Source: a virus. Taken from it: DNA of 64,000 nt. Below are positions 16,044-42,751 of the stretch, one piece after another. The position numbers and the translations under genes were made by a program. The stretch is from the IMG/VR virus record IMGVR_UViG_3300036795_000143, positions 15,279 through 79,278 of that record; one strand, given 5' to 3'. Within the stretch, counting starts at the first letter, position 1. The number at the start of each line of letters is the position of its first letter. The notes under the pieces were generated by a model. It had not been told where the DNA came from. It saw only the letters and a program-made list of their open reading frames with translations, and did not search any database.

Positions 16044-16372
16044 GCGAGGCCACCGAGGATCCCGAGCTGCATCCAAATATCGGGATCGGTTCGCATGACC
16101 ATTCCGCTGCTCATGTCACCGAGCTGGACCATGCCGTTGGGGCTGACCCGACGGACGAACCATCGCGCGGCCAACCGGATGGTGCCCAACCTGACTTCGG
16201 CGGGCACCGTCCAGTTGCCGTGGTAATCGAGGTCCGGCCGGTGGTCCATCACCCAGGACATTGCGGCGTCGAGGGTTCGCTGGAGGGCCTCGTCGTCGCG
16301 GGCGGTGAGCTGGCCGTCAAGCGTTTGGTCGTTTTTCAGCTCTTCCAAAAGGACCCACGACGGATTAGCCAT
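16040..16372 (-). CDS. Head-tail connector (gp6-like)
   Basis: 'DDEALQRTLDAA...RLAARWFVRRVSPNG...DPDI'. Confidence 0.75.
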   Translation of the reverse strand: MANPSWVLLEELKNDQTLDGQLTARDDEALQRTLDAAMSWVMDHRPDLDYHGNWTVPAEVRLGTIRLAARWFVRRVSPNGMVQLGDMSSGMVMRTDPDIWMQLGILGGLA

Positions 16373-23825: not shown

Positions 23826-24482
23826 ATGAGCCGTATCAAGATCCAAACCGATGATGGCCTGGGCTGGTTCGATTCCACCCGCGCCGAGATCTACTCCGAA
23901 GTAACCAGCTGGGATGGCGACAACCAGGTCAGCGTTGCCACCGGCAACTACGCCGAACACGAAGCCCTCTACCACACCGCCGGTGGACGCTGGGTCCTCC
24001 ACCACTGGTCGGCATGGCACGGCAAACCTGAAACCTATGAATTCATCGACGACGACCGTGCCCGCGAGTGGCTGATCCTCAACGAACACGACGACGCGGT
24101 TGCAAAGCATTTCGGTGAAATCGAAGAGGAACGCGGGCCAGGGCGACCCATGATCGGCGGGAAGGTGACAATCCGCCTCGGCGACCTGCTAGCCGACGTG
24201 GAGATGTACCAAGCCGGTCACGGGCTCACCCAAGCCGCAGCGCTCCGACAGATCGTGGAACTCGGTCTCCTCCGTGCGGGTTTGATCACCCCACCCGACG
24301 GTGTTGATGTCGATGAGCTGTACCAGCTCGGGGAGCACCTTCCGGGTAGTCGCGAGCTAGCCCAGCAAATCAACCGGCGAGACGCCCTAGCCCGAGAAGC
24401 GGCCGGGCTCGACGACCCCGCCGTAGGCGTACACCGCAAGGCAGCAGCGGCGACGCTGGCACGGCAGGCTGGTAATGAGTAG
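23826..24482 (+). CDS. Hypothetical protein with a ribbon-helix-helix-like segment
   Basis: SD GGGAGG; GPGRPMIGGKVTIRL...AAALRQIVELGL. Confidence 0.6.
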   Translation: MSRIKIQTDDGLGWFDSTRAEIYSEVTSWDGDNQVSVATGNYAEHEALYHTAGGRWVLHHWSAWHGKPETYEFIDDDRAREWLILNEHDDAVAKHFGEIEEERGPGRPMIGGKVTIRLGDLLADVEMYQAGHGLTQAAALRQIVELGLLRAGLITPPDGVDVDELYQLGEHLPGSRELAQQINRRDALAREAAGLDDPAVGVHRKAAAATLARQAGNE

Positions 24483-32155: not shown

Positions 32156-32201
32156 GGTCCCGTACCGCGCGACGCCGTTGGATCAAATCCAGCCGGGACT
32201 A
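32156..32201 (+). ncRNA. tRNA-like mini-element (acceptor stem plus T arm only)
   Basis: GGTCCCG/CGGGACT 7-bp stem, TA at positions 8-9, GTTGG-ATCAAAT-CCAGC T-arm mimic; no D or anticodon arm. Confidence 0.45.
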
Positions 32202-32942: not shown

Positions 32943-33002
32943 TCTTGCGCCGAACGGTCATGTGTGTTTGTGAAAAATTATCAGCGTGGGAAGGGGGTTG
33001 TG

Positions 33003-33944
33003 ATGGGCGACTACAGTCCGGCAGGGTGGATCGATTTTGTGGGTCAGCCCGACGCGGTCGGGATGATCCGACGATTGCTCAAAGCTGCCGCTCGACGCGG
33101 CGATCAGGCTGGTCACGTGTTGATTAAGGGTCCGGGTGGTCTCGGGAAATCGGAGCTACTCCACCTGATCGCTAAGTCGATTGGTGGCACGTTGCACGAT
33201 CACGATGCAACAGCGTTCGAGACGGTAGGTGATCTGATCGATGCTCTGGACGTGTTGCAGTCAGGCGACGTGTTCGGCATTGATGAGGTTCACGGGCTGA
33301 AAGGTAAGAAGCTGCTTTGCCTGTACCGGGCACTGGCTAAGGGTGAGATTAGCGCGGGTAGTCAGGTGATCAAATTGCCACCGTTTACGTGTGTCGCTGC
33401 GACCACCAACCCTGAGCTACTGACTCCGTCGTTTCGTACGCGTTTCGCGATAGAACCTAGCGTGACGTTCTACTCGGTCCCAGAGCTAGCGGACGTGGTG
33501 ACCCGCGCTGGGAAGCTTTCGATGCTCCTGGACGTCGAGCCCGACGCCGCACGGATCATCGCTGAACGGTCCCGTGGCATCCCGCGTACGGCACTGCGAC
33601 TGTTAGACCGTGTCCGCGATGCTGTGCCCGTAGGTGAGCAGGTAGCCACCACGGTGCACGTGTTGGACGCGATGAACACGGAAGGCATCGATGATCTAGG
33701 GCTAACGCGGTTGGATCGTCAGGTACTTACTGCGGTCGCAGTGAAATGGGCTCACCGTCCGGTAGGGCTAGCTCCGATCCTGCGATACATCCCGGATCCG
33801 GACGCGCGTACCTCCGTGGCGTTCCTAGAGCGGTATGACCTGATCGAGGCCACGGACGTAGGCCGTGAGGTGACCCTGGCTGGCTTACAGCACTTGTACG
33901 GGCCGGATGCGCGGCTACCGTTGACACGGCGCAGGAGGAGGTGA
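33003..33944 (+). CDS. ruvB: RuvB-like Holliday junction branch-migration ATPase (divergent)
   Basis: DFVGQ, HVLIKGPGGLGKS, IDEVH, LPPFT.VAATT, RTRF, SRGIPR.A.RLL.RVRD, IDDLGL...D, PVGL. Confidence 0.85.
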   Translation: MGDYSPAGWIDFVGQPDAVGMIRRLLKAAARRGDQAGHVLIKGPGGLGKSELLHLIAKSIGGTLHDHDATAFETVGDLIDALDVLQSGDVFGIDEVHGLKGKKLLCLYRALAKGEISAGSQVIKLPPFTCVAATTNPELLTPSFRTRFAIEPSVTFYSVPELADVVTRAGKLSMLLDVEPDAARIIAERSRGIPRTALRLLDRVRDAVPVGEQVATTVHVLDAMNTEGIDDLGLTRLDRQVLTAVAVKWAHRPVGLAPILRYIPDPDARTSVAFLERYDLIEATDVGREVTLAGLQHLYGPDARLPLTRRRRR

Positions 33945-33948
33945 CCGG

Positions 33949-34116
33949 GTGGCCACGGTGCGACGGTGCGAGGTTTGCGGGAAGCCGTTACCGGTGAGGT
34001 CGCGGGCGGATGCCCGGTACTGTCCGCCGGTACCGGGTAGTAAGTCGAGGATTTCTCCGTGTCGTGATCGTGCTGCGTATCTGCGAAAGCTAGGCAAGTC
34101 ATCCCGCGAGGTCTAA
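33949..34116 (+). CDS. Small CGNR-like zinc-finger protein
   Basis: SD AGGAGG; MATVRRCEVCGKPLPVRSRADARYC...CRDRAAYLRK. Below the ORF-track length cut-off. Confidence 0.6.
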   Translation: MATVRRCEVCGKPLPVRSRADARYCPPVPGSKSRISPCRDRAAYLRKLGKSSREV

Positions 34117-34137
34117 TCGAATAACTTTGTGCGACTA

Positions 34138-34168
34138 GCCGTCACCGTTTGTTGGTGGCGGTTTTTTG
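34138..34168 (+). terminator. Rho-independent terminator
   Basis: GCCGTCACC-gtttgtt-GGTGGCGGT followed by a T-run. Confidence 0.75.
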
Positions 34169-34246
34169 TTGTGTCCGTTTCACCCCTTATGGCTAGGCCA
34201 AACGGGTCGATCTGTGACATCTACCTGGATAAACAGCTAGAACGGC

Positions 34247-34274
34247 TTGCATCCGTGACATCTGCGAGTAGTGT
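34247..34274 (+). promoter_or_regulatory. Putative housekeeping-sigma promoter with flanking GTGACATCT direct repeats
   Basis: TTGCAT-16 nt-TAGTGT; GTGACATCT at about 34214 and 34255. Confidence 0.45.
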
Positions 34275-34284
34275 TTGTCTTGCA

Positions 34285-34850
34285 GGCGAAAAACAAAAAA
34301 ACAATCGGAGAACCTGATCTTGACGGTGAGGGATCTTCTGATTCTGATCTTACTCAACTACATAAGCCACCTAGGCGGTACGAAGCCTAGGGACGTCCAG
34401 GCAGCTAACCCGCGAGGGAACCACCTAGGACGCCGCCCTGATGATCGCAACTGGGCAAAACCGATTCTTCCGGATCGGGTGTCTCGAACTTGACCCCGTT
34501 CTAGGTGGCCCTGGCAGTAGATCATTTACTGAGGTGCGGGGTTACGGAGGTGATCCGTTTGTCGGACCCTTCCCAGCTAATGGAGGCGACCGCGTGAGCG
34601 GCCTAATTGCCCTCTATGCCACCAGACACCCTATCCGGGTATTTCCTTAGGTAAACCGAGTGCGGTAAGCCGCGCCGTGGCTGCGATGTTTGGATGATCT
34701 TACCCACATTGCCCCGGTGCGCGGCCTCGGTTCACCACATCGCAGATGTTGCCAGACCGACTAGGTCCGCTGGTGAGCCGTAATGGCGCCGCAGGTGGCA
34801 ATCCCGGGCTATGCCCGTGCGAGCGGTTCGATTCCGTCGTTTGCGGCCAC
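34285..34850 (+). ncRNA. Candidate large structured non-coding RNA of about 570 nt
   Basis: No credible CDS. 14/15-bp long-range helix 34470-34484 with 34624-34638; 9-bp helices 34366/34501, 34491/34536 and 34681/34737; GNRA-capped hairpins; T-loop-like 3' end. Confidence 0.6.
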
Positions 34851-34881
34851 TCGAAACAAACAAATCCAGGAGGTTCGACCC

Positions 34882-35118
34882 ATGCCTAATACTGTTATTG
34901 CTGAACATATAGTGCCGGGAACTGACGTAACGATTACCGTTTCGCGTAAGCAAAGTGCAATAGACGGTAAGGTTTATTACCTGACAACGCGGGTTCCTGG
35001 CACTAGTGATTTTGTCAACTACTTGCAGTGTGGTCGGCATACTGAAAGCGTCGCACGTGAGCAAGCCAATTTTCTGTGGGATGACACGGTTAAGCGCCGT
35101 GATGCTGCCCGGTTCTAA
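34882..35118 (+). CDS. Hypothetical protein
   Basis: SD AGGAGG. Confidence 0.65.
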   Translation: MPNTVIAEHIVPGTDVTITVSRKQSAIDGKVYYLTTRVPGTSDFVNYLQCGRHTESVAREQANFLWDDTVKRRDAARF

Positions 35119-35138
35119 CAACCGTTTAGGAGCCCACC

Positions 35139-35324
35139 GTGTGCGAGATCAAACGGAATGCCGCTGTCACCGGTACGTATTGCCTAGCGTGCGACATTGT
35201 GCACGTGGCATATGGCGCGACGTTAGCGGAATGGTCGGCAGTGTGTAGGGACGCGGAACGCATTAAGCGCGTCGCGGTACTCGATCTAGTTCTCGCTGCC
35301 GCTGCCGCTGCGTTAACGCGCTAG
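35139..35324 (+). CDS. Hypothetical protein
   Basis: SD AGGAG; stop TAG is the start of hairpin repeat 1. Confidence 0.55.
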   Translation: MCEIKRNAAVTGTYCLACDIVHVAYGATLAEWSAVCRDAERIKRVAVLDLVLAAAAAALTR

Positions 35325-35409
35325 CGCGTTTCCTGACTGTCCAGCTCGCACGGCTGGACAGTTTGGGATGCCCGCTAGGGCAGAGTCACGAATCTGAGGA
35401 TGGCGCGTC

Positions 35410-35613
35410 ATGCGTTCGACTATCACTCTCGAATCCCCTACTACTGTCACCCTGACTCATTCGGCCAGCTGTGCGGCTGCGCTTATCGCGTCCGATGCGC
35501 TGCGGTTGGCATTGCGGACCGAAACGAACCACACGGTTATACGGCAGATGAATACCACGCTGGCCGCCGTGTCCGCTCTGCGCAACGTGACCCATAAGCA
35601 CTGCCAGCACTAG
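35410..35613 (+). CDS. Hypothetical protein
   Basis: SD GAGG after repeat 1; the alternative frame 35400..35597 cannot be excluded. Confidence 0.4.
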   Translation: MRSTITLESPTTVTLTHSASCAAALIASDALRLALRTETNHTVIRQMNTTLAAVSALRNVTHKHCQH

Positions 35614-35793
35614 CCCACGTTTCGCCCACCGCAACGCGCCGCACGATTAAGGGTTAACCATGTTCACAGTGTTTCGGATCTTTGTTTACGCGGTGAGGAC
35701 GTACCCGGAAGTGCGCGCGCTGGTACTCGTTATCGGTTCGTGCCTTCTGGTTTGCTGCCTTATCTCCTGGTATCGCATGGTGGTGCCACTCCG

Positions 35794-36045
35794 ATGATTG
35801 ATACCGCAATCGATCGTGAGGCCAGTCCGGCGCAGAATACCCGCTGGCTTCGACGGATGACTACTGCCCCGGCTATCAAGGGTCACAAGCTACAGCGCGG
35901 AACCGCTACCGCGTGGTGTGAGTGTGGATATTACTGCGGCACGACTACGTCACACGTAGTGCAGCACGGTGGCGCAGATCATATCGAGCCACCTGACGAC
36001 GTTAATACGCGCCACGATTTGCACCGCGTCATTATCGGCCGCTAG
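35794..36045 (+). CDS. Cys/His-containing hypothetical protein
   Basis: ATGA-coupled to a 45-aa membrane ORF (35660..35797); stop TAG begins repeat 2. Confidence 0.55.
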   Translation: MIDTAIDREASPAQNTRWLRRMTTAPAIKGHKLQRGTATAWCECGYYCGTTTSHVVQHGGADHIEPPDDVNTRHDLHRVIIGR

Positions 36046-36137
36046 CGCGTTTCCTGGCCGTCCAGTCGCTGGACGGTTTGGGATGCCCGCTAGGGCATCA
36101 ATCGCCCACCGCATTACCGAATATAGGAGAATTTGTC

Positions 36138-37190
36138 ATGTCGAAGCAGACTATCGAATGGTTGAACACAAACGTGCTGGTCGGAATGACCGACGCACGC
36201 GGCAACGCGTGGCACTACCGGCAGAGCGCACAAGGTACGGAGTCGAATCACTACGCGGGTGCTATTCCGATCGAAGACGTCCGGCGTCGGTTGTTCTCCT
36301 GGGATGCGGTACCAGCGCGCGTGGCCGTCGAGGTCGCCGCGACAATGGAGAATGCAACCCACCTATCCGATGACGGGGTGCCGCTGCGGTGGGCAGTCCA
36401 GGAGGATCGCAAGGCAATCACCGCGTCCGACGACGGCACCGTGTTTGAAATGTTCAAATCCGGCTACACATCGCACCAATACAGCGAATGGCTACTGTCG
36501 AACGTGGGAACCATCCTCGATGGTGATCTCGGCATTAGTTCGGCTGGATTGCTCAGCAATCGTGGCGTGGCGTGGGTCGAGGTGGGAGTGCCGGAAACGA
36601 TTAAGGGTCCGGCCGGTGTCGATTTCCGCCCCAATTTGGTGGCGTGCACGTCGCACGATGGCACGCTATCGACGACGTACAAACGAACCGTTACCGCGAC
36701 AGTGTGCGATAACACGCTAGCCGCTGCCCTAGGTGAGAAAGGGCAGACGGTGAAAGTCAAGCATTCGAAGTATTCCGGGCTGCGGATCACCGATGCGCGG
36801 GTAGCGCTGGCCATGGTCACCGAAACAGCGGACGCGTTCGCCGATCAGGTCCGACGTTTGACTGATTGGAAAGTCGGACCGTTACAGCTGAAGACGGTCA
36901 TTAACGCGTTGGTGCCCGTGCCTGATGAGACGGGTAGGGCTAAGACAATCGCAGAGAAGAAGCAAGGCGAGATTCTGGCGCTTCTGGCTAATGATCTGCG
37001 TGTCCAGCCGTGGGCTGGTACCGCGTTCGGTGTTGTCCAGGCGTTCAACACTTGGACCCATCACATTAAGGGCACCCGTGGCAACGATGGCGGAGGCCGG
37101 GCAGAGCGAAACATGCTTTCCGCTCTGGACGGCAGCACCGATAAGTCAGACGCCATGGTCCTTAGCGTGCTGGCCGCCACGAACGTCTAG
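36138..37190 (+). CDS. DUF932-family phage/plasmid protein
   Basis: NAWHY, SAGLL..G..AW, TSHDGT, TVCDNTL, KH(S/T), GTAFG..QAFNT..HH. Confidence 0.85.
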   Translation: MSKQTIEWLNTNVLVGMTDARGNAWHYRQSAQGTESNHYAGAIPIEDVRRRLFSWDAVPARVAVEVAATMENATHLSDDGVPLRWAVQEDRKAITASDDGTVFEMFKSGYTSHQYSEWLLSNVGTILDGDLGISSAGLLSNRGVAWVEVGVPETIKGPAGVDFRPNLVACTSHDGTLSTTYKRTVTATVCDNTLAAALGEKGQTVKVKHSKYSGLRITDARVALAMVTETADAFADQVRRLTDWKVGPLQLKTVINALVPVPDETGRAKTIAEKKQGEILALLANDLRVQPWAGTAFGVVQAFNTWTHHIKGTRGNDGGGRAERNMLSALDGSTDKSDAMVLSVLAATNV

Positions 37191-37296
37191 GCCGTGTCGC
37201 ATCACCTAGCGCGTTTCCTGCCGTCCAGCTCACCGCTGGGCGGCTGGGATGCCCGCTAGGGCACAGACCACCAAATCCAGCGGGAAGGACAGAATC

Positions 37297-37812
37297 ATGC
37301 CAGAAACCACCGTTAACGTAGACACCGAGATCACCCGTGACGATATCCGCGCCATGCGTATGGCCGATTCCGTCCACTTCCATACTTATCAAGGGCGTTC
37401 GTGGATCGTTGCCGAACTGCGGAATTACGGCCTAGGCCGTATCTACACTGCGACCGAGCAACGGTTATTCTCCGAGGTCCGTAAGTACGGCGCCGATCGT
37501 TGCCGTGAGATCGCGGTAGCTACTCAACGGCTAGAGGACTACTCCGGCCGTACTGGCGAGTATCAAGCGTTTGCCTCATTCTGCCCTAAGGAAGTGTGGC
37601 TGACTATCGTGGCAGCATTACGGCCGGGCGATATTCTCGGTTTCCATTGGGTCAGGTCGAACAATTCCGAGAGTATGCGGACGATTGGTTACCATCACGA
37701 TCAGCTACGGCTGATTGCCAGCACTCCAGAGCACAAGAATAACCGTCACTGGATTGTCCAAGACCAGTTTGGTCCGGATAATTCCGCGCGGATGGTGCTA
37801 CGGAATGTTTAG
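37297..37812 (+). CDS. Hypothetical protein
   Basis: SD GAAGGA; C-terminal GPDNSARMV. Confidence 0.7.
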   Translation: MPETTVNVDTEITRDDIRAMRMADSVHFHTYQGRSWIVAELRNYGLGRIYTATEQRLFSEVRKYGADRCREIAVATQRLEDYSGRTGEYQAFASFCPKEVWLTIVAALRPGDILGFHWVRSNNSESMRTIGYHHDQLRLIASTPEHKNNRHWIVQDQFGPDNSARMVLRNV

Positions 37813-37899
37813 CTCGCCTGGATATGTTCCGCGCTGCTCACTTCGGGGGTGAGCGGTCGCGGTGGATAGTCCAGTCTCCAGCCGAAAGGATCCACTGCA

Positions 37900-38511
37900 A
37901 TGAGTAGCGACGTTGTCGAAGTCGACATGAACACCCTCACCATTCCGCGTGTGACCGTGCTTACCGGTCACACTTCCCCCGATACCGCGTACCTAGTAGA
38001 AGATTACCCCTATGGGCGCCGTTTGCGTTGCAAGATCCGCTATTGGATTGAGACAGCGGCTAAGGGCACGGCGAGGGGTCAACAGCGTTTCATGGCGCAG
38101 ACCACTAACCCTAGGTCGCCTGAGCCGCACGACGTGTGGAATAGGCCGAAGGCCAGCACGTATTCGCAGATTATGGTTATGTACTTGGACGATATCGACC
38201 ACGTGCATGCCTGGCACATTCCGTTGTGGATTGAGGGTACGTTCGACGCTCGCACTCGCGCGATGGGTATTTATGCCGGTTTGTCAAGTTACCAGCGGCA
38301 GCTATATGACGATATGCTCGCATTCTCTCACAAGCATAACTCGATTAGGTGGGAGGATTACCACGATCGGGTGTCGACGCTAGCCGAATGGATCGCCACT
38401 ATTGGAATGGCGCCGACGCTGCGGAACAACGTCTGGTCAAACGGCAATCGCCAGTTCTACCTCAGCGATCCCGCTGCGTACGTAACCGCAGCACGCGCGG
38501 CAATCGCCTAA
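37900..38511 (+). CDS. Hypothetical phage protein
   Basis: HTSPDTAYLVEDYPYG..LRCKIRYWIET...QTTNP...WN.PKASTY. Confidence 0.75.
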   Translation: MSSDVVEVDMNTLTIPRVTVLTGHTSPDTAYLVEDYPYGRRLRCKIRYWIETAAKGTARGQQRFMAQTTNPRSPEPHDVWNRPKASTYSQIMVMYLDDIDHVHAWHIPLWIEGTFDARTRAMGIYAGLSSYQRQLYDDMLAFSHKHNSIRWEDYHDRVSTLAEWIATIGMAPTLRNNVWSNGNRQFYLSDPAAYVTAARAAIA

Positions 38512-38578
38512 GGCGAATGGTGCGGGATGCCCGCTAGGGCAACATCCGGAAATTCCGACGTGATGGAAGTGAGTAGCC

Positions 38579-38917
38579 GTGGACGGTTATTTGATGATCA
38601 CTTTGGTGGTCAAAGCAGGCGATGATCCTGCCCGTGCGAGGTCGAACGCAATCGGACGGCTTAACGAGTGGGTGACTGATCGGACGCTAGGCGGTTTCAA
38701 TGGTGAGCCAAATCGTCCGGGTGCGCTTCTGCATTACTCAGTGCACGATGACACGGAAACGGCAGACGTCGCGGCGCAAGCGGCTGTAGTGGTTTCCGAT
38801 GGTATGCACGCGGCAGCGTGTAAAGCGTTCGATGACACGCTCGCATGGCTAGGGCCACAGTGTGACCGGTCCGCACTCCGTGCGGCTGTTAAGGCAGCTC
38901 TCAATTACAGCGCCTAG
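38579..38917 (+). CDS. Hypothetical protein
   Basis: Stop TAG begins repeat 5. Confidence 0.6.
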   Translation: MDGYLMITLVVKAGDDPARARSNAIGRLNEWVTDRTLGGFNGEPNRPGALLHYSVHDDTETADVAAQAAVVVSDGMHAAACKAFDDTLAWLGPQCDRSALRAAVKAALNYSA

Positions 38918-39001
38918 CGCGTTTCCTGCCGTCCAGCTGCCACGGCTGGATAGCGGGATGCCCGCTAGGGCAATCTATCTAGCCCTAAGGATGGCCACAT
39001 C

Positions 39002-39844
39002 ATGAGCGATTACAGCGCCGAAACGAGCGCACCAATCAGGAATAAAGCGGGTACGTTCCGTGTCCGTGTCGAATACGATCAGGATGGTACTGGTAACCCG
39101 CGTGACAATGATTGCAACACGGGCACCATGGTCCTATCTCACCGTGGCTATAACTTGCCGAGTGAAGGGGACGTCTCGTTCATCGATCAAATCGATAGGG
39201 CTATGGAGCGTGGCGGGCCGCTCCTAGCGGCACGGTATTTGCGGTATTTGACTTTGACCACAGCGGCTAACGCGGTAGTCCTCACCGTCTACGGGTACGA
39301 CCACGGGCAACTGAGGCTTAAGGCAGGCGAGCGTACAGGCAGCTTTGCCGATAAGTGGGATTCTGGTATCGCGGGTGTGATCTACGCGCTACGCGACGAT
39401 ATCGCTAAGGCTCACGAGGGCTATCCGATGCCTAGCGATGACGATATCGCCACCTGGCTTAAGAGTGAGGTCCAGGAGTACGACACGTGGGCTAACGGTG
39501 AAATGACCGGCTTTATCGTCGAGGTGCAGTGCGGTAAGTGCCAGGCATGGCGACACGTCGATTCATGTTGGGGCTTCTATAGCGTGAGCGACGCAATGGA
39601 GCAAGGCACCGACCAAATACCGGCTGATCTTAATGGTGTCGAACGCTGCGAGTGTGAGTGGAAGCTGCCGCACCCGTTGAGCGATGCGGCTAGGGCAGTC
39701 ATCGCGGCAATGTTTGGGGACGTTAATAGGTCCGGCGTTTCCGCACCGGATGCCGTATGGACCGAGATTCAGCAGGCTTTCCCGTTCGAGCTATTCGAGA
39801 ATAGGCCGGACGCAGTGACTTACGATCCAGAAGCGGGATGGTAA
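39002..39844 (+). CDS. Hypothetical phage/plasmid protein
   Basis: NPRD..N.GTM...HR.Y, YDHG, WDSG..G.IY, EV.EYD.W..GE..GF, DSCWGFY. Confidence 0.75.
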   Translation: MSDYSAETSAPIRNKAGTFRVRVEYDQDGTGNPRDNDCNTGTMVLSHRGYNLPSEGDVSFIDQIDRAMERGGPLLAARYLRYLTLTTAANAVVLTVYGYDHGQLRLKAGERTGSFADKWDSGIAGVIYALRDDIAKAHEGYPMPSDDDIATWLKSEVQEYDTWANGEMTGFIVEVQCGKCQAWRHVDSCWGFYSVSDAMEQGTDQIPADLNGVERCECEWKLPHPLSDAARAVIAAMFGDVNRSGVSAPDAVWTEIQQAFPFELFENRPDAVTYDPEAGW

Positions 39845-39848
39845 ACCA

Positions 39849-40250
39849 ATGATCACGATGGCGATAGACCTTAGTATGGGCGGTCCGGACGTCGATACCG
39901 TGCCGAGTGAGCTAGCTACGATCCTCCGTGAACTGGCTACGCGCGTGGAGCGTGGCGAGGCCAGCGGACCTATCCGCGACGTTAACCGGAAACGGATAGG
40001 AGCGTTTAGCGTTACCGCGCCGTTAGTGCCGTGCGTCTACTGCGGTAAGCCGGTCGACTATGACCCGCTTGATCCGACGGACGGAGACGTGACCGATAAG
40101 GATGGTTTACCGGATTGTTGGGATGCGCCTAGGCGCGAGTGCCAGGAATGCGGTAGCAATGGCGAGGATGACCCCGGATGCGGTGAGTGTAGCGATACCG
40201 GAAACTCATGGATGGGTCTTCACGCGGTAAGAGCACAAGATGAGTCGTAA
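39849..40250 (+). CDS. Hypothetical protein with C-terminal Cys motifs
   Basis: ELATILRELA......G.IRDVN...IG; stop TAA begins repeat 6. Confidence 0.65.
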   Translation: MITMAIDLSMGGPDVDTVPSELATILRELATRVERGEASGPIRDVNRKRIGAFSVTAPLVPCVYCGKPVDYDPLDPTDGDVTDKDGLPDCWDAPRRECQECGSNGEDDPGCGECSDTGNSWMGLHAVRAQDES

Positions 40251-40359
40251 GTGCGTTGTCCAGGCGCCCGACCACCCGACTAGGGGGGGCCGGGCGTTTG
40301 GCCTGCCCGCTTAGGGCAACTACCGCAGCACCGAACCCTAGCTAGGAAGGCTGGACACA

Positions 40360-40614
40360 ATGACCGGAAACGATGGCAATACCGAACGGGTGGAAGCTGC
40401 GCACGTCGCGCTTAGGGCGTTCGCTGGACACTGCGGGCCGGATGAATACGGCACCAATCTAGGCGACCCTGATGAGTTTCTCACCATTGCGGGTGACCTG
40501 ATCGCTAACCTCTTGCACGCTGCGGACGCGGTAGACGTTGACGCGGACACATTGCTAGGCCGCGCAATCTTGCACTACTCAGCGGAAAGCACCACGCCGT
40601 ACGACTTGCCCTAA
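40360..40614 (+). CDS. Hypothetical protein
   Basis: SD AGGAAGG; DLIANLLH.AD...A..HY.AE. Confidence 0.65.
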   Translation: MTGNDGNTERVEAAHVALRAFAGHCGPDEYGTNLGDPDEFLTIAGDLIANLLHAADAVDVDADTLLGRAILHYSAESTTPYDLP

Positions 40615-40804
40615 CCGCACCACCCGAACCACGGGAAATCTCGCGAGCGTTGATATGGACCAATTGCTAAGCCGCGCCATCCTTCACTATTCAGCGGAAA
40701 GCAACGACGTTCCCTAGGCGTTTCCTGACTGTCCAGCCGTGAGCTGGACAGTGCGGGATGCCCGCTAGGGCAGCGACTACCAACAGCCCTAGGGAGGGCA
40801 CACC

Positions 40805-41305
40805 ATGGCAAGGCAGGCCACGCGCCGTAGGCGCCGTGATAAGGGTGCGACCGCTGATGATATCCAGGTGGGCGACCTGATCGAACCGAACAACAACGGG
40901 TACCGCGCCACGGTTTATTGGCGTGGCACGTCAAAGAATTGCACCGAGCCTCACGTAGTGCTGCGTTGGACGTATCCGGATGATTTCAGCGTGAACGCGG
41001 CGCACCGGGGGCAGTCCAGCGGCCGAATTTGTCGGCCGGGTGATCCGGTCACGCGTTGGCTGGCACCAAACGAAACAACTAGCAAGGACGGCACGGTGAG
41101 CGGTCCGGCGGCTACCCGTGAGCAGGTACGTGAGCTGGCCGGGGCTATCGCGGCGCAGGCGCAGGCCATCGCGGACGGGACGCACACGGCCTCCGTGTTC
41201 GCCGCTGTCTGCCGCGTGTGGTCCAACGCTGAACTGTTGAAAGCTTGGACGCGTGACGATAGGCAGGATGGGCCTGCCGATCGGCGCGGCTTGCATGCGG
41301 TATAG
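40805..41305 (+). CDS. Hypothetical protein (possibly two fused small domains)
   Basis: SD GGGAGG after repeat 7. Confidence 0.55.
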   Translation: MARQATRRRRRDKGATADDIQVGDLIEPNNNGYRATVYWRGTSKNCTEPHVVLRWTYPDDFSVNAAHRGQSSGRICRPGDPVTRWLAPNETTSKDGTVSGPAATREQVRELAGAIAAQAQAIADGTHTASVFAAVCRVWSNAELLKAWTRDDRQDGPADRRGLHAV

Positions 41306-42678: not shown

Positions 42679-42751
42679 TGCGGCGTAGCTCAGTGCAGAG
42701 CGCCGGTCAGCGGACCGGAGGACGCAGGTTCAACTCCTGCCGCCGCAGCCA
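42679..42751 (+). ncRNA. tRNA-like RNA with aberrant 6-nt anticodon loop and encoded CCA
   Basis: TGCGGCG/CGCCGCA acceptor; GCTC-AGTGCA-GAGC D arm (no GG); CCGGT-CAGCGG-ACCGG; GCAGG-TTCAACT-CCTGC; G-CCA. Confidence 0.8.

Follow-up and report, generated by a model that had tools for sequence, protein, structure and literature searches.

The roughly 570-nt stretch that precedes a row of small genes in this soil actinophage can be read as a long leader, not itself translated, that belongs to an operon of accessory genes and whose tRNA-like 3′ end would act as a cutting signal for host tRNA-processing enzymes; we put the probability of this reading, which is drawn from the DNA sequence, at about 40%. 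The best-supported description of the leader is a modular one, in which conserved ends appear to flank an exchangeable middle, with a minimal tRNA mimic on the 3′ side. Of the observation as a whole, it is this tRNA-like module that is solid and of greater interest. A first-pass annotation had proposed a large, pseudoknotted noncoding RNA here, and what holds of that proposal is a promoter-proximal, gene-poor stretch with a better-than-shuffled fold and a tRNA-like end, whereas a single ornate, conserved, pseudoknotted RNA or ribozyme is not supported, in view of crossing helices at chance level, an unstable fold, and the replacement of the middle in a relative. Coordinates refer to the window, the 64,000 nt that were analyzed (bases 15279 to 79278 of a 79-kb IMG/VR virus record of soil origin).

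In the mechanism that we propose, a low-GC, CTAG-rich island of small accessory genes at 34.9 to 41 kb would form a separate transcription unit, with transcription starting at about 34281, just past the upstream terminator. The leader would fold into several local domains, its first 130 nt and last ~140 nt being conserved and its middle 300 nt a swappable insert, and would end in a 60-nt tRNA shape lacking both the anticodon arm and the D arm, with the acceptor stem stacked on the T arm and a terminal G-CCA. Host RNase P could then cut on the 5′ side of this module, between 34789 and 34790, and host 3′ tRNA-trimming enzymes could cut or trim at the CCA. The leader would thus be detached, and the operon mRNA would keep a short A-rich 5′ UTR of ~32 nt before the ATG at 34882. 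What the analysis shows is the anatomy, the conservation pattern, the non-decoding tRNA shape, and the absence of a family match; that the stretch is transcribed and cleaved, and that the leader body might have a part in regulation, is what we infer. The need for 500 nt of leader is a point against the reading that it does not account for.

Genomic setting and transcription signals

The phage is a siphovirus-type actinophage, with a large terminase at most 38% identical to those of Rhodococcus phages such as Jflix2, Shagrat, and REQ1. Its capsid, tape-measure, and tail genes are carried on the minus strand, and the ~570-nt stretch sits within a plus-strand block. Upstream of the stretch, on the same strand, are a gene for a RuvB/clamp-loader-like AAA+ protein (32964 to 33944), a 55-aa ORF, and then a terminator. 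Among 5.8 billion protein clusters, the RuvB-like protein has only two close relatives, at 90% (P0002) and 50% (P0003) identity, both from short soil contigs, the next matches being cellular RuvB proteins at no more than 38%. The contig of the 90% relative ends at 34260, short of the stretch. On the downstream side, the sequence and its ORF list give an AGGAGG (34868 to 34873) and the first operon gene, the orphan g78 (ATG at 34882, 78 aa; together 34868 to 35118, plus strand), for which Pfam and PHROG searches returned no family match. It is followed by a row of small genes, including one for a DUF932 protein, which are separated by copies of a conserved hairpin repeat. In the Rhodococcus phage Shagrat, where a DUF932 homologue is present, no comparable gap was found, and a search of the phage's own genome yielded no paralogue of the stretch.

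The plus-strand island at 33 to 41 kb combines a lower GC content with an abundance of CTAG. This word is depleted genome-wide (131 observed versus 227 expected), yet it occurs 4 to 9 times per kb at 33000 to 41000, which suggests that the island is a module with a different history. The intergenic repeat family lies at gene junctions between 35319 and 40790 (plus strand) in five to six copies, each consisting of CGCTAGCGCGTTTCCTG, a GTCCAGC...GCTGGAC hairpin, and GGGATGCCCGCTAGGGCA; a pattern scan of IMG/VR for it gave chance matches only. A soil relative of the stretch, introduced below, has a copy (GGATGCCTACTAGGGCAA) directly before 35116, where the window has none, and the repeats may therefore mark points of module exchange. 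Since these downstream hairpins are not terminator-like, the earlier idea of an antiterminating leader gains no particular support from them.

The intrinsic terminator of the RuvB-like unit, previously reported at 34138, is confirmed at 34137 to 34173 (plus strand) as an 11-bp stem followed by a T run. Beyond it lies a candidate promoter, TTGCAT and TAGTGT separated by a 16-nt spacer (34247 to 34274, plus strand), from which a transcript is predicted to start at about 34281 to 34283. Public soil DNA runs contain relatives of this flanking DNA, in which the RuvB end and the terminator region are ~90 to 96% identical to the window. Three of these soil relatives share the −35 box of the window exactly, differ from it at 5 of the 16 spacer bases, and have TAATGT rather than TAGTGT as the −10 box. 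The promoter thus draws plausibility from its position and from the pattern of its boxes in the relatives; however, it was missed by a consensus promoter scan, and a loose promoter pattern showed no enrichment within the 64-kb window. A terminator scan found none between the leader and g78, and the similarity of the leader start to the 5′ UTR of g78 is not above the genome background.

A minimal tRNA-like element at the 3′ end

Reading of the sequence and a descriptor scan both point to a minimal tRNA-like element at 34790 to 34849 on the plus strand. Its acceptor stem consists of 7 bp, CGCAGGU (34790 to 34796) with GUUUGCG (34839 to 34845), three of them G-U, and two further pairs could lengthen it to 34788/34847. 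A mini hairpin of 5 bp with a 3-nt loop follows at 34805 to 34817, and then a T arm, AGCGG-UUCGAUU-CCGUC (34822 to 34838), with a canonical loop and the G53-C61 pair; the 3′ end is G34846 followed by an encoded CCA (34847 to 34849). The T-loop-like GCGG-TTCGATT-CCGT noticed earlier is accordingly genuine, as a part of this acceptor/T-arm module. The element does not have the makings of a decoding tRNA: only 25 nt separate the acceptor stem from the T arm, there is no D arm and no 7-nt anticodon loop, and ARAGORN did not call it as a tRNA. The T stem has two weaknesses, an A-C mismatch at 49-65 and a G-U pair at 50-64. The features of a minihelix-type RNase P substrate, with its 12-bp acceptor/T helix, are present, namely, a 7-bp acceptor on a 5-position T stem, a U54 U55 C56 R57 A58 loop, the G53-C61 pair, and an RCCA end. 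The G-U pairs of the acceptor stem and the T stem, like those of a helix in the leader body (34491/34536), form on the plus strand only and so favor that strand as the putative RNA strand.

The T-loop word GGTTCRANTCC matches four times in the 64 kb, against 0.32 expected, the matches being two tRNAs, one coding region, and the tRNA-like element; about 0.003 canonical T-loop words would be expected by chance within 570 nt. The match in a coding region (GGTTCGATTCC, 23866 to 23876, plus strand) lies in a 218-aa ORF, where it encodes GWFDS, and, as a chance occurrence, it can serve as a control when tRNA-like elements are called by motif. When the genome was searched with the descriptor, the scan recovered the four real tRNAs, the element at 34790 to 34849, a weaker candidate at 32156 to 32201, and two probable chance matches, with ~0.65 matches expected in shuffled genomes. 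The weaker candidate (plus strand) is a second reduced module, with the acceptor GGUCCCG/CGGGACU, a small hairpin, and a 5-bp arm; its loop, AUCAAAU, has an A at position 54, it carries no CCA, and with this noncanonical loop it could be a chance match.

By ARAGORN, three tRNA genes lie in the window and four in the genome, scattered singly on the same strand as the stretch. One of them, at 42679 to 42751 (plus strand), has a 6-nt anticodon loop with the anticodon given as "gc" (Ala or Arg) and an acceptor stem UGCGGCG/CGCCGCA followed by an encoded G-CCA. An encoded CCA is thus found in this tRNA and in the tRNA-like element and is absent from the other three phage tRNAs (Met, Gln, and Glu). 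The scattered tRNA genes would suit an account of the element as the remnant of a tRNA gene that has lost its D and anticodon arms, decaying at a recombination junction amid swapped DNA. What is unexpected for a decaying fragment is an acceptor pairing intact over 7 to 9 bp, inclusive of the three G-U pairs, together with a canonical T loop, and the CCA that three of the four real tRNA genes lack is also hard to square with it. Another option that we considered and set aside is an attP site carrying a tRNA 3′ end, which is unlikely since no integrase or serine recombinase is found in the 79-kb record. Two scans of prokaryote genomes, the first with the T-arm/acceptor 3′ end and the second with the 15-bp inverted repeat of the leader body, gave no match, so that neither a tRNA end copied from a host nor a MITE finds support in them.

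Several parallels for a cut at such an element are offered by known RNase P substrates. The bacterial enzyme recognizes the stack of acceptor and T arm along with the RCCA end (PMC4919922), and among the RNAs other than tRNAs that RNase P is known to cut are operon mRNAs, regulatory RNAs of phages, and MALAT1 at its tRNA-like end (PMC4919922, PMC8457004). In MALAT1, RNase P cuts on the 5′ side of a 58-nt tRNA mimic and thereby makes the 3′ end of the long RNA (PMC8457004, PMC4919922). This mode of recognition and the MALAT1 precedent lead us to propose that the transcript is cleaved at 34789/34790 and trimmed at the CCA. The soil relative retains CAGGUGGCAA, which includes the 5′ strand of the acceptor, and GCGGUUC, the start of the T arm, with a different and shorter middle in place of the mini hairpin; this fits a signal that is read through the acceptor/T stack alone. 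As in MALAT1 and MEN-beta, a long noncoding transcript would end in a ~60-nt tRNA shape made of an acceptor, a reduced middle, and a T arm; unlike these eukaryotic nuclear RNAs, the phage element has a genome-encoded CCA, an mRNA follows it, and its cleavage is only predicted. The mascRNA-menRNA model (RF01684) aligns end to end with 34788 to 34847 at 13.7 bits (E = 1.3 in an 86-nt search) against a gathering threshold of 42.5, so the likeness is one of shape and not of membership; the tRNA-Sec model gives a nonsignificant 13.9 bits. The precursor of the C4 antisense RNA of phages P1 and P7 is a further RNase P substrate (PMC4919922 and references 201, 202, and 206 therein). It and the operon mRNAs resemble the proposed case in that a host tRNA-processing enzyme cuts a transcript at a tRNA-like fold; they differ in having no canonical T loop or encoded CCA and no sequence kinship with the phage element, whose own role we infer. 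Plant mitochondrial t-elements, likewise tRNA shapes without an anticodon, offer another comparison; the phage element is set apart by its place at the end of a 500-nt leader and by the absence of a D arm too. Were the cutting signal real, the MALAT1/mascRNA arrangement would have a counterpart in a virus of bacteria, and the element would be an instance of an actinophage using a non-decoding tRNA shape to organize its transcripts, and would offer a compact 60-nt module for defining RNA ends in actinobacteria.

Thermodynamic prediction complicates this picture. The tRNA-like module alone folds no better than shuffled sequences (z = −0.26). In the full-transcript ensemble, neither the T stem nor the internal acceptor stem reaches a probability of 0.05, and the acceptor 3′ strand is paired with the 5′ end of the transcript instead. 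This second candidate partner of the acceptor 3′ strand is UGCAGGC at 34281 to 34287, and for a transcript starting at 34281 its tmRNA-like 5′/3′ closure with 34839 to 34845 has a pairing probability of 0.94. Such a closure raises the alternative of a stand-alone structured RNA of ~570 nt, a new phage RNA class with tmRNA-like topology and a large body. Besides the closure probability, this alternative can invoke the substitution C34287U in the relative, which preserves the closure pair, the tendency of substitutions in the first 130 nt to avoid positions predicted to be paired (P ~0.015), a whole-region fold at z = −3.2, and the want of any family match. Against it are a poorly kept body (a relative otherwise ~90% identical has 122 nt in place of 300), the lack of a terminator ahead of the next gene, crossing helices at chance level, and a fold z-score equaled by ~4% of genome windows.

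The comparison with tmRNA bears on the same alternative. tmRNAs are ~350 to 400 nt long, and some actinophages encode one. The likeness to tmRNA (RF00023 and the permuted forms) lies in the 3′ T arm and acceptor strand with CCA, the possible closure with the far 5′ end, the long body, and the candidate pseudoknots; the differences are the 570-nt length and the lack of a P2 helix, a tag frame, and the G3-U70 pair. Neither ARAGORN, including at its 95% threshold, nor Rfam gave a tmRNA match, and ARAGORN at 60 to 80% made noise calls on both strands. The pair at 3-70 is C-G in both closures, with G-U at 5-68 and 6-67. The three plus-strand translations contain no tag frame with a resume codon and stop, typically with an Ala-Ala end, and beyond the acceptor there is no P2-like pairing, as the A-rich run on the 5′ side has no U-rich partner. 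On balance we regard a stand-alone RNA as quite unlikely. More improbable still is a broader synthesis in which a promoter-driven RNA of ~500 to 570 nt constitutes a new phage RNA class that undergoes either MALAT1-like RNase P maturation at the minimal tRNA mimic or tmRNA-like 5′/3′ closure, the rival acceptor strands at 34281 to 34287 and 34790 to 34796 acting as a switch. If this were true, the class would be one in which two acceptor 5′ strands decide the release of the downstream accessory-gene mRNA.

Conservation and folding of the putative leader body

The relative of the stretch is a single 547-nt soil metagenome contig (run X3, record 8), known as a list of its differences from the window. 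Under the leader reading, it divides the plus-strand stretch into three parts ahead of the tRNA-like element. The 5′ leader domain (34281 to 34412), with an A-rich start, a GGAG at 34307 to 34310, and hairpins, is conserved at ~90% identity. The central segment (34413 to 34712) is variable, its 300 nt being swapped for 122 other letters. The 3′ segment (34713 to 34768) is conserved at 52 of 56 positions and is predicted to fold into the hairpins ACAUC-GCA-GAUGU and GACC-GACUA-GGUC. The relative then lacks 34769 to 34789, a 21-nt deletion, going on as TACAGGTGGCAACCCTAACCCGGGCGGTTC, and the first gene of its operon differs from g78. The eight substitutions listed within 34281 to 34412 fall at positions of low pairing probability (mean 0.23 versus 0.52; P ~0.015): C34287U keeps a predicted pair (C-G to U-G), U34337C breaks one, and the other six are at unpaired positions. 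Some kind of RNA-level constraint on the first 130 nt is weakly supported by these predicted pairings.

The clean block swap, together with the 21-nt deletion and the different first gene, is also what would be expected if the stretch were mosaic filler, a recombination junction with swapped DNA around the decayed tRNA gene discussed above, whose only function is that of a 5′ UTR. Such an account would further agree with a thermodynamic signal that lies within the upper range of the genome and with most helices being at chance level, and it would make the stretch an ordinary one. The promoter and the first 130 nt are nonetheless conserved, and phage genomes seldom retain 600 nt of idle DNA. 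We consider this account unlikely, if less so than any of the other alternatives.

The first-pass annotation listed helices, tetraloop hairpins, repeats, and a T-loop-like element, all of which are indeed present where it placed them. However, of the five long-range helices that it proposed, four lose one strand and the fifth both strands in the relative through the replacement of 34413 to 34712. The helix 34470 to 34484/34624 to 34638 is lost entirely, although the relative is otherwise ~90% identical, and the helices 34366/34501, 34654/34726, and 34681/34737 are among those that lose one strand. One large conserved pseudoknotted RNA is therefore not borne out, because the nearest relative swaps the whole middle.

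Tests against shuffled sequences give a mixed result. The 566-nt region as a whole folds better than its shuffles, with z = −3.18 on the plus strand and −2.21 on the minus strand; the proposed 9-bp pseudoknot helices, in contrast, are at chance. Two perfect stems of at least 9 bp are observed against 0.59 expected (P = 0.12), and these are the very "pseudoknot" helices 34366/34501 and 34681/34737. Helices with 11 of 12 positions paired occur at least once in 23% of shuffles. The only helix to stand out is the 14-of-15-bp pairing of 34470 to 34484 with 34624 to 34638 (P ~0.007), formed by CCGGATCGGGTGTCT and AGACACCCTATCCGG, which would close a plus-strand domain at 34470 to 34638; the fold of this central domain (34466 to 34642) has z = −3.19. 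In the phage's own background, 11 of 272 sampled 180-nt windows (~4%) reach the z-score of the central domain, and parts of the RuvB coding region fold at z down to −2.8. The predicted global fold is unstable and shifts with the chosen 5′ end: a start at 34285 yields a minimum-energy structure that contains the helix 34470/34638, and with a start at 34281, the ensemble gives 0.94 to a competing helix, 34421/34508, and 0.06 to 34470/34638. The background scan also yielded 180-nt windows whose z-scores of −5 to −7 greatly exceed in strength any value in the stretch, at ~−10777 and ~−1477 (window coordinates, upstream) and at 16073.

The stretch matches no known RNA family. Rfam searches at the gathering threshold and with E up to 10 returned no GOLLD, ROOL, RNase P RNA, riboswitch, T-box, or intron. 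GOLLD and ROOL, to which it had been likened, are similarly large, phage borne, and near tRNA genes, but the stretch matches neither at any Rfam threshold and its core is not conserved in the nearest relative. A resemblance to group II intron domain V likewise falls away: GAGCCG and CGGTTC are 42 nt apart, a compact domain V being a 34-nt hairpin, no intron model matches with E up to 10, and the relative lacks the GAGCCG half. Three copies of a boxA-like word, TGATCTTAC, are at chance level for 570 nt.

Searches for additional relatives covered several collections. When the stretch and its conserved 5′ part were compared with GenBank phages by blastn, the outcome was nothing or noise; in IMG/VR, neither the RuvB-like and DUF932 proteins nor an alignment of RuvB recovered relatives; and IMG/VR pattern scans for the tRNA-like pattern or the helix arms found none. 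Of two metagenome scans, the first was empty, and the second gave three chance matches inside unrelated genes. Pieces of runs X2 and X5 match at 34445 to 34481 and 34585 to 34622, continue into unlike GC-rich sequence, and were taken to come from unrelated organisms. The public runs in which the sequence was located were all DNA runs.

The repeated words CCACCTAGG and CTGATCTT and the A-rich tract raise the question of whether the stretch could act as DNA, for example as an origin of replication or a cluster of operators. The short repeats are each present in two copies, three CCTAGG sites fall within 60 nt, and the stretch adjoins the gene for the RuvB/clamp-loader-like AAA+ protein. Two-copy repeats of 8 to 12 nt are, however, at chance level, and the CTAG enrichment spans the whole 33- to 41-kb island rather than being specific to the stretch. 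Further, one CCACCTAGG copy lies in the block missing from the relative, and the other copy is mutated in that relative (A34369T). We therefore hold this to be very improbable.

Coding potential of the stretch

The earlier statement that the stretch holds no credible coding sequence is right insofar as no ORF exceeds 72 aa and a six-frame search of Pfam and PHROG found no match even at E = 1; against it, the source record has a 69-aa ORF annotated there. Two candidates come into consideration, both on the plus strand. ORF A (34320 to 34493) is a doubtful 57-aa frame with a TTG start and a GGAG 9 nt upstream of it; no homologue or called gene corresponds to it in the protein library. ORF B (34441 to 34650), an orphan of 69 aa with an ATG start, is identical to an exact singleton in that library (P0026), which implies that the source gene caller called it; apart from this entry, it matches only long repetitive proteins, and these weakly.

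If these small proteins were translated, either or both, the RNA structure would be incidental. In favor of such a view, the GGAG ahead of the TTG of ORF A follows an A-rich leader, the GC content of ORF A by codon position (0.62/0.45/0.57) resembles that of coding sequence, and three of the six substitutions in its frame in the relative are synonymous; ORF B, for its part, is a called gene and fits within the swapped block. On the other side, the two ORFs have neither homologues nor family matches, they overlap by 53 nt, and the C terminus of ORF A would differ in the relative. Their codon scores (−0.05 for ORF A and −0.015 for ORF B) fall in the off-frame range, although genes of the island generally score low; this test is weak here because g78, with its strong ribosome-binding site, scores equally low. 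Translation of ORF A or ORF B strikes us as unlikely, and the explanation in which the RNA structure is incidental to such translation as slightly more so. ORF B has a GC3 of 0.50, against 0.61 to 0.68 in most neighboring genes, and a Gly/Pro-rich, low-complexity look; the called gene is probably spurious, and the 69-aa "gene" deserves suspicion in annotation.
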